DNA of 64,000 nt from IMG/VR virus record IMGVR_UViG_3300032330_002177, positions 1 through 64,000 of that record. One strand, 5' to 3'. Position numbers and translations under genes: made by a program. The DNA comes from a virus (Duplodnaviria > Caudoviricetes). The notes below the pieces were generated by a model. The model saw only the letters and a program-made list of their open reading frames with translations, had not been told where the DNA came from and searched no databases. Shown piece by piece: positions 14,373-51,166 of the stretch. Numbering within the stretch: position 1 is the first letter of the stretch; every line of letters begins with the position of its first letter.

Positions 14373-14398
14373 TGACCTAAAATATCTTTATATATTTA
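14373..14398 (+). promoter_or_regulatory. TGACC-N13-TAnnTTTA promoter heading the lipoprotein/RNA cluster
   Basis: TGACC-TAAAATATCTTTA-TATATTTA; same 13-nt spacing as at least 17 other copies. Confidence 0.7.
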
Positions 14399-46165: not shown

Positions 46166-46414
46166 ATGAATTTTGGAACAAACGGATGCATGTATAACTG
46201 TGGTGATAGTTGTACAGGAGAATGTATAGAACCCACGAATGATGAACAATACATAGGTCTTATATTAGACGAAAGAAACGAACACTATATAATTGGTTAT
46301 AGAGAAACATCAGATTTAGAAAAACTAAAAGAGTGGAAGAAAGAAAGGTTAGCGTGTTCTAATGTTATTGATTGTAAAATATTAAAAATTGAAGAAAGTT
46401 ATGAATCTAATTGA
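46166..46414 (+). CDS. Small protein with Cys-rich N-terminus
   Basis: GCMYNCGDSCTGEC. Confidence 0.55.
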   Translation: MNFGTNGCMYNCGDSCTGECIEPTNDEQYIGLILDERNEHYIIGYRETSDLEKLKEWKKERLACSNVIDCKILKIEESYESN

Positions 46415-47522
46415 TACAGAATACCAAGACTTACTTTGCTACATTCTAGGTAATGGAGTAGAGAAGAAAGACAGAACAGGAACAGGAACACTATCCATAT
46501 TCGGATGGCAGATCAGACACAACATGAAAGATGGCTTTCCACTCCTAACAACAAAGAAGATGCATTGGAAATCAATCGTAACAGAACTACTATGGTTCTT
46601 GCGTGGTGATACCAATATCAAATACCTTGTTGATAATGGATGTCATATATGGGATGGTGATTGCTACCAAAATTATAGAAAGATAGAATTTGAAAGAATA
46701 ATGTCTCAAAAACATGGTGAATATCTTATAAGTAAAGAAGAGTTCATCAACAATATCAAAACCGATGATGAGTTTGCTGAGAAGTGGGGTGAATTAGGAC
46801 CAATTTATGGTAAGCAGTGGAGAGATTGGAGACACCATTACCCTAAAACATATCCTGAAGTAAGTCAATATGAACAATATATAGGTGTTAAGACAATAGA
46901 CCAAATAGCAAACCTAATCTCTGAACTCAAAACAAATCCTGACTCAAGACGATTAATGGTTAATGCTTGGAATGTAGGTGAGTTAGACCAAATGACGCTT
47001 CCACCATGTCATTATGGATTTCAAGTATATACGAGAGAGTTGAGTTATTTTGAACGATACAAGTTAGCGGATATTCAAGGATATGAAGAATATGGAAAAA
47101 GATTTGGCGGGTGGTACTTATTAGATGAAAATAAAGAATCTAATATAAAGGATTGGAATATAAAAAATATACCAACCCGAGCAATCTCTTTAATGTGGAA
47201 CCAACGCTCAGTAGATACATTCCTTGGTTTACCATTCAACATAGCATCTTATGGATTGCTACTCCAAATCATAGCCAAAGAAGTTAATATGGTTCCGGAT
47301 GAATTGATTGGTAATTTAGGTGACGTACACTTATACACAAACCATATTGAGCAAGCTAAAGAGCAAATTGGTAGAGAGCCATTTGAGTTGCCTACATTAA
47401 ATATACTACACAATCCATGTAAGGATATAATACCAACAGATATATCATGTTATAATATATTTGATTTTGAATTAGAAAACTATCAATCACATCCAGCAAT
47501 CAAAGCACCATTAAGTAACTAA
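46401..47522 (+). CDS. thyA: Thymidylate synthase with insertions
   Basis: DRTGTGT, FPLLTTKK, ELLWFLRG, DSRR, LPPCH, QRSVD, PFNIASY, DVHLY. Confidence 0.97.
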   Translation: MNLIDTEYQDLLCYILGNGVEKKDRTGTGTLSIFGWQIRHNMKDGFPLLTTKKMHWKSIVTELLWFLRGDTNIKYLVDNGCHIWDGDCYQNYRKIEFERIMSQKHGEYLISKEEFINNIKTDDEFAEKWGELGPIYGKQWRDWRHHYPKTYPEVSQYEQYIGVKTIDQIANLISELKTNPDSRRLMVNAWNVGELDQMTLPPCHYGFQVYTRELSYFERYKLADIQGYEEYGKRFGGWYLLDENKESNIKDWNIKNIPTRAISLMWNQRSVDTFLGLPFNIASYGLLLQIIAKEVNMVPDELIGNLGDVHLYTNHIEQAKEQIGREPFELPTLNILHNPCKDIIPTDISCYNIFDFELENYQSHPAIKAPLSN

Positions 47523-47813: not shown

Positions 47814-48122
47814 ATGAGTAAACGTTACGTTTGGCAAAACATAGACAATAATGCTAAACCCACTTCTAATGACTGGTGGCCAATTAAGAAACAACGTAAG
47901 AAACTAGCAACCAAATTTGCATCACACCAGCAATCAGGACGCTATGTACACATTATGGATGATGAGATGTTCAAAACCATTCTCCAAATGCTAGAATCTA
48001 ATACGGATATACAGATGGCTAAAACTATAATATGGAATAGTAAAATCAATGATGAACAAGTAAAAATATTAATAAACAAGTATTGCCGTATACTATTAAA
48101 CAATGATGAAGATAATAAATAA
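47814..48122 (+). CDS. Hypothetical protein
   Basis: ORF track; lacks the YxxRG motif of the downstream array. Confidence 0.55.
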   Translation: MSKRYVWQNIDNNAKPTSNDWWPIKKQRKKLATKFASHQQSGRYVHIMDDEMFKTILQMLESNTDIQMAKTIIWNSKINDEQVKILINKYCRILLNNDEDNK

Positions 48123-48354
48123 ACCATTAAGTGAACTTAATAATATATTACATAACAACGCCGCAGGTAAAAAACACCGTAGATGGAGTATATTCAGACC
48201 ATACACATATAGGGGTGAAGTATCTAGAATATTAAAAATAACAGATCATGAAAGTAAGTCAACAACAATACGTTTTACCAATGGGGGGTTACATAAAACA
48301 ATTAGACGAGTGCGATCAAGAAGATACAGCAATAGTAAAAATAGCATTATTTAA
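48103..48354 (+). CDS. Basic YxxRG-motif peptide 1
   Basis: YTYRGEVSRILKI. Confidence 0.7.
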   Translation: MMKIINKPLSELNNILHNNAAGKKHRRWSIFRPYTYRGEVSRILKITDHESKSTTIRFTNGGLHKTIRRVRSRRYSNSKNSII

Positions 48355-48517
48355 TAAAGCAATAAATAGCATTAACCATAGAAGGTATGTATTTAATAAA
48401 TCATATATACGTCGAGGTAGTAGTAGTAGACGATCTAAAATATTCATTAAAAGGTTTACTAAAGCACATAAATACCCTATAAATTATCAATATACATCAT
48501 CAAGTATAGCTATATAA
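48248..48517 (+). CDS. Basic YxxRG-motif peptide 2 (start uncertain; in-frame ATA at 48341 possible)
   Basis: YIRRGSSSRRSKI. Confidence 0.6.
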   Translation: MKVSQQQYVLPMGGYIKQLDECDQEDTAIVKIALFNKAINSINHRRYVFNKSYIRRGSSSRRSKIFIKRFTKAHKYPINYQYTSSSIAI

Positions 48518-48519
48518 TA

Positions 48520-48699
48520 ATGGCATATAAAAAACAATACAACGTACGAGGGATAAAGAATAAACATAGAATAAGAAACAGGCATAAACGATATATTAAC
48601 AGATGGAATAAAATATACATAAACCGTATAGCACAAATTAATAAACAACAACGTATGCTTCATCTACAACATCAGTTAATACAAAAGTATGGTCTATGA
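48520..48699 (+). CDS. Basic YxxRG-motif peptide 3 (59 aa)
   Basis: MAYKKQYNVRGIKNKHRIRNRHKRY...KYGL*. Confidence 0.65.
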   Translation: MAYKKQYNVRGIKNKHRIRNRHKRYINRWNKIYINRIAQINKQQRMLHLQHQLIQKYGL

Positions 48700-48842
48700 C
48701 ATATATTAATAAAGTAATTAAAAAACATTTCACTCATCAATACGCAGATAGAGGTAAAATAAGTAGACGATCAAAGGTAACATGGAAAGGTATATTAAGA
48801 CGAATACGAGCAGCTAAACATCAAAGTAAAATAAGAATATAG
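48696..48842 (+). CDS. Basic YxxRG-motif peptide 4 (48 aa)
   Basis: MTYINKVIKKHFTHQYADRGKISRRSKVTWKGILRRIRAAKHQSKIRI*; ATGA overlap. Confidence 0.75.
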   Translation: MTYINKVIKKHFTHQYADRGKISRRSKVTWKGILRRIRAAKHQSKIRI

Positions 48843-48845
48843 TTA

Positions 48846-49022
48846 ATGAAACATAAACGTAAATTATATCCGAAACGCGGACGGGATAGAAGGCTTGGAA
48901 AAGTCAGTTACCATATCCCAGGGTATATAGAAAGTGAATTAGTTAAAATGATATCAGCACACATACGAGATGAAATTGATAAGGAGATAATAAATAGGTT
49001 AAAGACACATGACATATATTAA
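48846..49022 (+). CDS. Basic YxxRG-motif peptide 5 (58 aa) with capsid-like C-terminal helix
   Basis: MKHKRKLYPKRGRDRRLGKVSYHIPGYIESELVKMISAHIRDEIDKEIINRLKTHDIY*. Confidence 0.7.
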   Translation: MKHKRKLYPKRGRDRRLGKVSYHIPGYIESELVKMISAHIRDEIDKEIINRLKTHDIY

Positions 49023-49119
49023 CAACATAATTAAAAAACAATTCTATCATCGATATACAAGTAGAGGTAAATTAGGTAGACGAATAAAAATGTCATGGCA
49101 TTTAAAAAGTATTATATAG
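49009..49119 (+). CDS. Basic YxxRG-motif peptide 6 (36 aa), close paralog of peptide 4
   Basis: MTYINNIIKKQFYHRYTSRGKLGRRIKMSWHLKSII*. Confidence 0.75.
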   Translation: MTYINNIIKKQFYHRYTSRGKLGRRIKMSWHLKSII

Positions 49120-49247
49120 TAACATTTATTAAGTGGAATGGTCGTTTTAAATTTACATTAAACTACAGAACGAGAGGTAGAATAAGACGTGCAACGTTAG
49201 TAAGATTTAACAAACGATTAATATGGAGACGAAACAAAACAGTGTGA
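49095..49247 (+). CDS. Basic YxxRG-motif peptide 7 (50 aa)
   Basis: MAFKKYYIVTFIKWNGRFKFTLNYRTRGRIRRATLVRFNKRLIWRRNKTV*. Confidence 0.7.
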   Translation: MAFKKYYIVTFIKWNGRFKFTLNYRTRGRIRRATLVRFNKRLIWRRNKTV

Positions 49248-49354
49248 TATATACTAAGGCATTTAAAAAACGTAAACATGGACTCATAATAGATCCAAGT
49301 TATATAAGTAGAGGACTAATAGGACGAATGACGAAAATAATAAATAATAGATAA
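49244..49354 (+). CDS. Basic YxxRG-motif peptide 8 (36 aa, GTG start)
   Basis: MIYTKAFKKRKHGLIIDPSYISRGLIGRMTKIINNR*; GTGA overlap. Confidence 0.65.
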   Translation: MIYTKAFKKRKHGLIIDPSYISRGLIGRMTKIINNR

Positions 49355-49378
49355 TAATCCAGGAATAAATAAAAATAA

Positions 49379-49618
49379 ATGACGCGTACGGGTAAACAAA
49401 TATATGAACGAGCGATACGGACGAAATGGGTATATAAGAAACATATATATACGTCGTTACAGCAAATATATGAGTTACGTGGTCGGTTAAATAGGAAAAT
49501 TAAGTTATGGGTGGGTGGTGGTAAACAAAGAACGCCGGCGTTAGCGCAATATATGGGTAGTAAGCGAATAGCGAAACGGGTGACATATGGTTACCGTAGG
49601 CGACATATCAATTATTAA
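49379..49618 (+). CDS. Basic YxxRG-motif peptide 9 (79 aa)
   Basis: YELRGRLNRKIKL. Confidence 0.65.
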   Translation: MTRTGKQIYERAIRTKWVYKKHIYTSLQQIYELRGRLNRKIKLWVGGGKQRTPALAQYMGSKRIAKRVTYGYRRRHINY

Positions 49619-49827
49619 AACGTTTTATAGTAACGTATAGGACAAGTAAGTGGCGTATGGGTATGTGATAAGTATTAGGAATGTGGGTGACCGGTGTTTC
49701 GTGTCATGTCCACCCCTTTCATGGGTCAAACAAGCCCTCCACAAACGGGACCCTATATAAGTATATATTAGGCTGACCGGCTTAAAAATCATATATTTAA
49801 TTATATTAAAAAACAAAATAAACAGTT

Positions 49828-50058
49828 ATGAGTTATCAAACAAAGGTTAGAGCGAATTACCTTAATCGCACAGCAAAATTGTCTTTCTACACACACCGCA
49901 AACGTACAGGTGATCTTACTCGTTTATCAGAAGAGACAGGCTACTCAGTAAGCCACTTATCAAACATGATTAACGGTAATAGAAAAGTAACTGACACAGC
50001 AGCAAATGCTATGTATATGGTTGCTCGCCGCCGTCAAAAGAACGCTATCGCAGCGTAG
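49828..50058 (+). CDS. XRE-type HTH DNA-binding protein
   Basis: LTRLSEETGYSVSHLSNMINGNR; promoter copy at 49774. Confidence 0.75.
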   Translation: MSYQTKVRANYLNRTAKLSFYTHRKRTGDLTRLSEETGYSVSHLSNMINGNRKVTDTAANAMYMVARRRQKNAIAA

Positions 50059-50200: not shown

Positions 50201-50473
50201 ATGACAGATATGAACACAAATTACACAGACGCAAGAATGAATTTAAACGAAGTATGTAACTGGTTAACCAATCAGGGGTATGAAGATTTAGGGGATATTA
50301 TTAAGGATAAATTCACTTACCATACATGGGTAGTAGACGGTATGATAAGAAAGGATGTTGTTGAGGATATATTCGAACGTTGTTTTGGTGATAATATGAT
50401 GTTCAGACAATTACAATGTGATGTAATAACATCATTAAGTATAGTACCGTTACATGAAGCACATGTTGACTAA
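50201..50473 (+). CDS. Hypothetical early protein
   Basis: Promoter copy at 50158. Confidence 0.6.
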   Translation: MTDMNTNYTDARMNLNEVCNWLTNQGYEDLGDIIKDKFTYHTWVVDGMIRKDVVEDIFERCFGDNMMFRQLQCDVITSLSIVPLHEAHVD

Positions 50474-50545: not shown

Positions 50546-50821
50546 ATGAAAAAAGAAACAACAAACACACCAACAGCAAAACGTGGCCGTCCAACGGTTG
50601 AAGGTTCTAAACGTCAAGCAGTATTAGCAATGCGTGCAGCTAAAGTAGCAGCAGGCGGAGAAATTAAACGTGGTCGTCCAGCCGGTACTAACAAATTAAA
50701 AGTCGATCCATCAATTGAGGTGGTATTGAAAGTTAAAGCGCCTAAGGCAAGAAAGGTAACTGATACAGTAGCGGTAGTTACAATGGATGAGTTTATCGAT
50801 AACGTTACCGACGCTCAATAA
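50546..50821 (+). CDS. Double AT-hook basic protein
   Basis: Two KRGRP motifs; K/A-rich; promoter copy at 50481. Confidence 0.7.
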   Translation: MKKETTNTPTAKRGRPTVEGSKRQAVLAMRAAKVAAGGEIKRGRPAGTNKLKVDPSIEVVLKVKAPKARKVTDTVAVVTMDEFIDNVTDAQ

Positions 50822-50914: not shown

Positions 50915-51166
50915 ATGACAAACGAACTAATGCAGTATCTAAATGAAATGAAAGCACAGATACAAGAACTATATGAAGATATAGATAGCGAATTACGTGG
51001 AACCGATAATCCAGACTTAATACTAGACGGTTATAATAACGTGACTGAAAAATTAGGTGAAGCTATGAATAACCTAGAATCTATGATTTCGGATCTAGAT
51101 ATGGGAGTATATAATAAAATAGATTCGTTGGATTTAGATGACGAGATGTCAGAGGTCGAAGACTAA
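50915..51166 (+). CDS. Acidic coiled-coil protein
   Basis: Very D/E-rich 83-aa ORF. Confidence 0.6.
   Translation: MTNELMQYLNEMKAQIQELYEDIDSELRGTDNPDLILDGYNNVTEKLGEAMNNLESMISDLDMGVYNKIDSLDLDDEMSEVED

Follow-up and report, generated by a model that had tools for sequence, protein, structure and literature searches.

What are nine consecutive open reading frames (ORFs) of 36–89 amino acids (aa), each carrying a single copy of the same short motif, doing side by side in the genome of a large uncultured phage? The array in question lies at positions 48103–49618 on the + strand of a 64,000-nucleotide stretch, which we refer to as the window and which constitutes the first 64 kb of the 102,423-nt IMG/VR record IMGVR_UViG_3300032330_002177 (judged 63% complete). 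A first-pass annotation, made from the letters alone, described the array as an expanded, diversified peptide family under protein-level selection, with YxxRGxxxRxxK as its common motif. As judged by the variation of codons within the motif and by the conservation of the ORFs among orthologues, this description is borne out: the array ORFs are translated, protein-selected but fast-evolving genes. The existence and the evolution of the family are well supported, and of these we are highly confident. For the function of the peptides we tentatively favour the binding of nucleic acids, and weigh this reading against its competitors below.

An array of nine motif-bearing microproteins

All nine ORFs, which we call m1 to m9 in order, begin with ATG, and all three frames are used. 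The junctions are as compact as had been described, with successive ORFs spaced by −107, +2, −4 (ATGA), +3, −14, −25, −25 and +24 nt. The motif strings reported in the first-pass annotation are likewise correct, with YxxRG present in 9/9 members, the arginine at +8 in 8/9 and the lysine at +11 in 7/9, as are the codons that it listed for the Arg-Gly pair. Six-frame translation gives 12 matches to YxxRG for the window and 17 for the entire 102 kb record; nine of these matches fall in the array (48202–49469), exactly one per ORF, and the longer YxxRGxxxRxxK pattern is found in the window seven times, always inside the array (7/7). Simulation of the region with its own composition (2000 order-2 Markov runs) yielded a mean YxxRG count of 0.31 and a maximum of 4, as compared to the 9 observed; the motif is, as predicted, commoner than in shuffled sequence.

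Across 36 distinct copies of the motif from ten contigs, the invariant arginine is encoded by AGA in 11 cases, CGA in 11, AGG in 6, CGT in 5, CGC in 2 and CGG in 1, the invariant glycine by four codons and the invariant tyrosine by two. Such synonymous variation at invariant residues argues that conservation acts on the amino acids. The ratio of nonsynonymous to synonymous substitution rates between orthologues (dN/dS, Nei–Gojobori) ranges from 0.16 to 1.14 and is mostly 0.2–0.6, with 0.11–0.16 for the next downstream gene; substitutions are distributed over the three codon positions as 221:197:282 in the array and as 46:15:115 in the neighbouring gene. Both the motif and the ORF boundaries are kept in related phages: ORF lengths and starts are preserved among orthologues of independent assemblies, with m3 being 59 aa in four sources, m5 58 aa in seven and m9 77–82 aa in more than ten, and most of the window members were already present as called genes in the protein collection. 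Taken together, the kept ORFs, the motif and the dN/dS values point to translated, selected genes rather than DNA repeats.

The suggestion that no described family is involved has also stood up, with profile searches against Pfam, PHROG, NCBIfam and PDB remaining without a match. Scanning all nine peptides with hmmscan against Pfam and PHROG at E up to 10 returned only noise, with no N-protein family, and phrog_1380, a family of small basic early proteins, was not among the PHROG matches of any of the nine; the NCBIfam scan of the peptides likewise gave only noise, no ribosomal protein family was found in Pfam or NCBIfam at permissive thresholds, and the ESM Atlas search produced nothing above chance level. 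Judging from these searches, homology-based assignment of function is not possible for the array peptides, and the array is a previously undescribed microprotein family.

The members differ in size, charge and constraint (coordinates are on the + strand; L and P numbers are our handles for the related sequences). The first, m1 (48103–48354; 83 aa, pI 11.6, net charge +15, core YTYRGEVSRILKI), has orthologues of 75–79% identity (P0003, P0004 and L069:5411–5659) with a dN/dS of 0.39. Its end shares 107 nt, in another frame, with m2 (48248–48517; 89 aa, net charge +11, core YIRRGSSSRRSKI), which belongs to a subfamily also found in L069, L075, L083, L077 and L082 (a starred clade in our tree) and which, at a dN/dS of 0.75–0.99, shows the weakest constraint among the array members. 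In m3 (48520–48699; 59 aa, net charge +16) the core YNVRGIKNKHRIR stands directly at the N-terminus; its orthologues in L069, L074 and P0017 are of the same 59 aa length, with a dN/dS of 0.20–0.57. The start codon of m4 (48696–48842; 48 aa, net charge +14, core YADRGKISRRSKV) overlaps the stop of m3 (ATGA), and m4 has orthologues in L069, L074, P0009 and L083 (dN/dS 0.33–0.53). In m5 (48846–49022; 58 aa, net charge +7) the core YPKRGRDRRLGKV is followed by a conserved acidic amphipathic helix; the orthologues, again of 58 aa, are P0016, P0018–20 and P0023 (dN/dS 0.30–0.71).

The shortest member, m6 (49009–49119; 36 aa, net charge +9, core YTSRGKLGRRIKM), is 79% identical to m4 over 90 nt at the nucleotide level, the sole long DNA repeat in the array; it is found in L074–L076 and absent from L069/L070. 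By this comparison, m6 is a recent, shortened and polymorphic duplicate of m4. The m7 ORF (49095–49247; 50 aa, net charge +16, core YRTRGRIRRATLV; dN/dS 0.48) has subfamily relatives in L069 (two copies), L082, L083 and P0026, and m8 (49223–49354; 43 aa, net charge +8, core YISRGLIGRMTKI) in L069, L074, L071 and L083, the latter subfamily being the other starred clade, with a dN/dS of 0.22–1.14. Finally, m9 (49379–49618; 79 aa, net charge +19, core YELRGRLNRKIKL) is always terminal in the array. An m9-like gene is present at every related locus, and m9 is the best conserved and most widespread member: in ten sequences with identity down to 40%, K20, K21, I30, Y31, E32, R34, G35, W44, Y58 and K66 are invariant, dN/dS is 0.16–0.75 and substitutions by codon position are 60:47:92.

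A side observation concerns the acidic C-terminal helix of m5 (residues 28–53, 48924–49022), which weakly resembles a segment of the T4-type major capsid protein. The tail matches Pfam Gp23 with an E of 0.0087 and PHROG 138 with an E of 0.017, and is 50% identical over 26 aa to residues 186–211 of RaK2 gp23; in database-wide tblastn, E is only 0.6–5. The major capsid protein of the window phage is absent from the 102 kb record, which leaves no capsid protein of its own to compare with m5. At the sequence level, the likeness is suggestive, not established.

Distribution and turnover of the family

We recovered orthologues by a word-indexed profile search and then fetched their contigs, which stem from JGI, ENA and Logan metagenome assemblies and, judging by the sample names, in several cases from lakes. 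An exhaustive search with hidden Markov models (HMMs) against 1.84 billion cluster representatives yielded ten clusters at E ≤ 0.001, all of 43–89 aa, and neither a longer or fused form nor a cellular homologue. Only one further IMG/VR contig bears the array. In 67 phages that are more distant, no array lies within ±8 kb of ThyA, and single-protein IMG/VR scans, in which m9 and the upstream 102-aa gene served as queries, returned nothing. Among 50,697 deposited phage genomes, neither m9 nor the downstream 76-aa gene had a match by tblastn, and blastn of the region matched only a ThyA-adjacent fragment. As far as these collections reach, the family is restricted to a single clade of T4-like phages from fresh water, all of them uncultured.

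Within the clade, copy number varies widely. There are nine copies in the window, in L069/L070 and in L075, and at least eight in L083; L078/L079 and L082 have four, L077 has three and L071–L073 have two. Equal numbers do not imply equal membership: L069/L070 differ from the window in lacking m6, in having a second m7-like copy and in having a different middle section. Every array closes with an m9-like gene, and in each case the same non-coding block and the same 76-aa gene come next. By blastn, the window and L069 are collinear over m1–m5 (89%) and from m9 onward (83%), with m6–m8 replaced, i.e. window positions 48994–49379 correspond to L069:6305–6773, where other family members are found. 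Similarity among the window, L069 and L074 is discordant between the array and the downstream gene, which points to recombination within or beside the array.

In the maximum-likelihood tree the m2-like and m8-like groups are strongly supported, the m7-like (91/89) and m9-like (80/78) groups more weakly. Each of these groups is common to contigs whose m9 proteins are only 40–70% identical, which makes the subfamilies older than these phage lineages. We conclude from the sequence comparisons that the array is subject to birth-and-death evolution, with tandem duplication, loss and replacement resulting in 2 to 9 copies, and not to transient dosage amplification. Large phages are known to have hyperplastic accessory loci that evolve fast, and as a phenomenon the array is one of these; it stands out for its nine members, for how deeply they have diverged around an invariant core of ~13 residues, and for its clear subfamily structure.

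The array is a clean natural case of microprotein birth-and-death, combining overlapping frames, a fresh duplicate and subfamilies that predate the phage lineages. Phage annotation routinely overlooks or disregards proteins below 50–100 aa, and the nine selected microproteins account for ~1.5% of the recovered genome sequence. Confined as it is to a narrow uncultured clade, the family nevertheless offers a defined set of peptides that can be synthesised and assayed for binding at low cost, despite both phage and host being uncultured.

Predicted structure and candidate targets

The nine peptides are strongly basic (pI 10–12, net charge +7 to +19, Lys and Arg making up 18–32% of residues), hydrophilic (negative GRAVY, not membrane-like) and contain almost no cysteine. 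Alignments extend the core to Y-x-x-R-G-[RK]-h-x-[RK]-x-x-[KR]-h, where h is hydrophobic, often followed by W or T; a hydrophobic residue followed by KK[HY/Q] sits 2–15 residues upstream of the core, and several members have a tryptophan at +13. Outside the core the paralogues can barely be aligned.

We modelled m4 and m9 with AlphaFold2 as single chains, using the family alignment. The m4 model (mean pLDDT 77.7) consists of a helix at residues 2–17, a break at Asp18-Arg19-Gly20 and a second helix of 27 residues at 21–47 (pLDDT 86–88); the m9 model (pLDDT 62.7) is all helical, with two long helices and the motif within the first. In the m4 model the tyrosine appears to close helix 1, the glycine to act as a stop or kink, and Arg(+8) and Lys(+11) to lie on the basic helix 2. 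The motif may set a helix-kink-helix geometry as much as it provides a contact surface, and is perhaps a structural element, not a binding epitope offered to a single target, as the first-pass annotation had proposed. Foldseek of the m4 model against PDB found no match, and a wide VIA-align comparison gave only generic long-helix and coiled-coil matches with Z about 5, including the GCN4 basic region-zipper on DNA and ribosomal-protein tails.

The first-pass annotation had also noted a loose analogy between the RGxxxRxxK spacing and the tip of the uL22 β-hairpin. This is not supported: both AlphaFold2 models, albeit of modest confidence, are all-helical, with RG placed at the helix break in m4, although the peptides may fold differently on their target. 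The PDB profile search did not find uL22 either, its sole match being uS14 with a non-significant E of 1.4.

The closest likeness in presumed mode of action is to the arginine-rich motifs (ARMs) of phage N proteins (lambda, P22, phi21) and of HK022 Nun, which are likewise phage early, short and very basic segments. ARM peptides are unstructured on their own and form a helix, which may be bent, on their target, where an aromatic residue stacks on the RNA; the predicted kinked basic helix of the array peptides, with its conserved Tyr and Trp, would fit this mode. The array differs from the ARMs in several ways: the two have no sequence similarity, the array motif sits in the middle of the peptide and not at its N-terminus, and nine paralogues take the place of one gene. 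Neither a boxB-like target nor a Nus-binding region, as in the lambdoid N system, turned up here, and the A-rich leaders of the early promoters have no obvious stem-loop by inspection, although no systematic hairpin search was made. In N proteins, the arginine-rich motif is known to fold when it binds boxB RNA (PMC11480772).

Induced-fit, ARM-like nucleic-acid-binding early accessory proteins are in our judgement the best explanation of the array, albeit one that we consider somewhat less than evenly probable. It draws on the basicity of the peptides, the conserved aromatic residue and Arg/Lys positions, the predicted kinked helix, the small size, the early setting and the nucleic-acid-type neighbours. 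The peptides would be unfolded when free and would fold onto nucleic acid, much as the N proteins of lambdoid phages do, or the basic helices of bZIP proteins and of ribosomal-protein extensions; that they bind by induced helix formation, and RNA more likely than DNA, is a tentative proposal. In the core, Y would end one helix, RG would act as a glycine-based stop or kink, and a long basic helix, amphipathic in part, would start there; the conserved tyrosine, and the tryptophan at +13 of several members, would stack on bases, and the Arg and Lys residues would contact the backbone. The proteins might serve as delayed-early accessory factors in host takeover or in the protection of phage RNA, with the subfamilies recognising different targets or variants of one target. 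If the peptides do bind RNA or DNA, the ~13-residue helix-kink-helix core would be an addition to the few minimal nucleic-acid-binding modules that are available.

Several observations weigh against this reading. We found no similarity to a known nucleic-acid-binding family in either sequence or fold, the confidence of the structural models is modest, and dN/dS is near neutral in m2, which overlaps m1, and in some m8 pairs. The conserved block adjacent to the array is without RNA covariation, and no candidate RNA or DNA target element turned up. Nor is a high positive charge alone proof of nucleic-acid binding: T4 TifA also bears a positive cluster, yet its target is a protein toxin (PMC9391042).

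A more ambitious version is a diversified RNA-binding micropeptide toolkit, in which the m2-, m4-, m7-, m8- and m9-like subfamilies would address different host or phage RNAs with the same Tyr/Arg-Gly-kinked basic helix and would act jointly, early in infection, to reprogramme RNA stability, translation or termination. We consider such a toolkit unlikely; if real, it would be the first ARM-peptide system with multiple paralogues, and very small, orthogonal tags for RNA binding could be drawn from it.

Two T4 systems offer further points of comparison. TifA (gp61.4), an early protein of 85 aa whose positive charges cluster centrally, inhibits the toxin ToxN, and tifA amplifies in tandem by microhomology recombination under host-defence selection (PMC9391042). 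The dmd-tifA 'anti-toxin island' resembles the array in the small size and positive charge of the protein, the early-type setting, the T4-type phage background and the tandem copies. However, hhalign of our 31-sequence family profile against T4 gp61.4 gave a probability of 0.06% and an E of 0.78, and in nature tifA exists as one copy, with amplification giving identical ones, whereas the array copies are ancient, diverged and sorted into subfamilies. The T4 internal proteins IPI, IPII and IPIII are a diversified set of small basic proteins encoded in hyperplastic loci near tRNA genes, and they share an N-terminal capsid-targeting sequence that is cut after a Glu by the prohead protease. The array is likewise small, basic and diversified, has one short shared element and lies near tRNA genes; its shared element, however, is the internal YxxRG, and the N-termini are unrelated (MMKIINK, MKVSQQ, MAYKKQ, MTYINK, MKHKRK, MAFKKY, METKQN, MTRTGK), with no conserved Glu.

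How do the readings that compete with nucleic-acid binding fare on the same evidence? The peptides could be protein-directed inhibitors for counter-defence or host takeover, each binding a host protein (a defence nuclease, a toxin, or a transcription or translation factor), with the array as the fixed, diversified product of arms-race gene amplification. The 2 to 9 copies among close relatives, the swapped middle, the polymorphic duplicate m6, the early-type location and the fast evolution (dN/dS 0.2–1.1 as compared to 0.11–0.16 in the neighbouring gene) all speak for this, an arms race with diversified host targets would yield the same picture of old subfamilies, and the tandem amplification of T4 tifA under selection provides a precedent (PMC9391042). 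We nevertheless hold it to be doubtful: there is no homology to TifA (hhalign probability below 1%), no defence-related context was found around the array, where the neighbours are ORFans, and old subfamilies retained across divergent phages fit divided roles or diversified specificities better than transient dosage. Should the peptides indeed block defence proteins, the array would be a natural counterpart of the laboratory amplification of tifA. It is also conceivable, if rather improbable, that only m9 is functional and that the other members are short-lived, decaying duplicates that are open merely because they are recent. This would explain why no member but m9 is present at every locus and why m9 is the best conserved, why relatives such as L071 manage with two copies, why m6 is a truncated copy of m4, and why dN/dS approaches 1 in m2 and some m8 pairs; it does not explain why far-diverged paralogues still keep Y, R and G via synonymous codon changes, why m2-, m7- and m8-like genes are intact in contigs with m9 only 40–70% identical, or why dN/dS is 0.2–0.6 in most pairs.

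A virion-packaged role similar to that of T4 IPI–III or of adenovirus mu/VII, in which the peptides would neutralise DNA charge or be injected ahead of the genome, would be in keeping with very basic peptides in a T4-like phage, with tRNA genes nearby (45885, 46079) as at the T4 internal-protein loci, and with the weak capsid likeness of the m5 tail. The missing N-terminal capsid-targeting sequence and Glu cleavage site, the early-type, promoter-less location and the lack of a TATAAATA late-type box in or just before the array make such a role very unlikely. Precursor or substrate peptides, with YxxRG as a recognition or cleavage site in the manner of ribosomally synthesised and post-translationally modified peptides (RiPPs) or with its Arg or Tyr modified by a phage transferase, are brought to mind by the many diversified short peptides with one common motif and by the glycosyl-/methyltransferase island at 23.8–38.1 kb of the same phage; yet among the ten adjoining genes there is no recognisable maturation enzyme, RRE domain, peptidase or exporter, the peptides are without Cys-, Ser- or Thr-rich cores, and the conserved part is central rather than a leader, so that we give this idea only a slight chance. 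Slimmer still are the prospects of the repeats acting as DNA or RNA (iterons, binding sites or a structured transcript) with the ORFs incidental. The region is A-rich, and the lower dS (synonymous rate) than in the next gene in some pairs (m9, window as compared to L071: 0.42 vs 0.92) could hint at nucleotide-level constraint, but the codon pattern largely refutes the notion: the conserved amino acids use different codons, including AGA vs CGN, the copies occupy all three frames, each within its own ATG-to-stop ORF, long DNA similarity is limited to one pair, and there is no Rfam match.

Genomic setting and host

The window contains a family of promoter-like cassettes of sigma-70-like appearance, consisting of TTGACC, a spacer of 17–19 nt, TATTATATAA and an A-rich leader. 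The pattern TGACC-N17-25-TTWAWTATA has 16 matches in the window vs 0.12 expected; fifteen of them, each preceding a small gene, lie on the + strand. The sites, at 14373, 19757, 40389, 40545, 42600, 42914, 49774, 50158, 50481, 53686, 54160, 55146, 56591, 56676 and 60407, span 14373–60438. Since there is no such cassette between 42944 and 49774, the array forms the distal end of a promoter-less stretch of ~6.7 kb, which contains, in order, small ORFs, a metallophosphoesterase, tRNA-Gln and tRNA-Glu (45885, 46079), ThyA and the array. By its pattern of promoter-like elements, the array appears to lie in an early-type region without an early promoter of its own. The TATAAATA late-type boxes are not enriched, with none in or just before the array, and a generic scan for sigma-70 and terminator consensus sequences was uninformative in this AT-rich DNA.

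The boundary of the array is formed by a conserved non-coding block (49619–49827), at the end of which a sigma-70-like early promoter (TGACC at 49774) opens the next unit. The block is 210–250 nt long across loci, and in an alignment of eight phage contigs its conservation equals or exceeds that of the flanking genes; the palindrome AAAACGTTTT is located at the m9 stop codon, and CTATATAAGTATATA inside the block is invariant. Single-sequence and alignment folding of the array and the downstream block revealed no covariation, no Rfam family was found at a permissive threshold, and the folding z-score of the block is −0.55. These results suggest that the block is more likely regulatory DNA (an operator, origin or recombination site) than structured RNA.

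Beyond the block follow four genes that form a fixed block of their own: a conserved gene for a basic 76-aa protein directly after the early promoter (49828–50058), one for an acidic 90-aa protein (50201–50473), one for a basic 91-aa protein with two KRGRP AT-hook-like motifs, kept in all related contigs (50546–50821), and one for a very acidic 83-aa protein (50915–51166). Judging by its AT-hook-like motifs, the 91-aa product is probably another small nucleic-acid-type protein. Ten neighbouring proteins have no relevant Pfam or PHROG match, and by hhalign the array profile is unrelated to the downstream 76-aa gene.

With a GC content of ~29% and essentially all genes on the + strand, the phage encodes a gp43-type family B DNA polymerase, GroEL, ThyA and a clamp-loader-like ATPase in addition to the 14 kb transferase island; the array region is unusually A-rich. 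The closest cultured relative by DNA polymerase is Microcystis phage Mel-JY01 (36% identity), followed by T4-like cyanophages (~28%), and these identities mark the phage as a distant T4-like one. The first-pass annotation had assumed a Bacteroidota host, an assumption that finds no support here: the nearest cultured relative is the T4-like Microcystis phage, and the early promoters are sigma-70-like, from which the promoter consensus of Bacteroidota differs. The early promoter family argues, at the level of sequence, for a host with canonical sigma-70 promoters.

A minor observation concerns the ThyA gene upstream of the array (46389–47522). At 377 aa, the protein is ~90 residues longer than the span of the PHROG 160 profile, and the extra length is common to 60 or more related uncultured phages with 53–69% identity; the true start may be an ATG downstream of the listed TTG.

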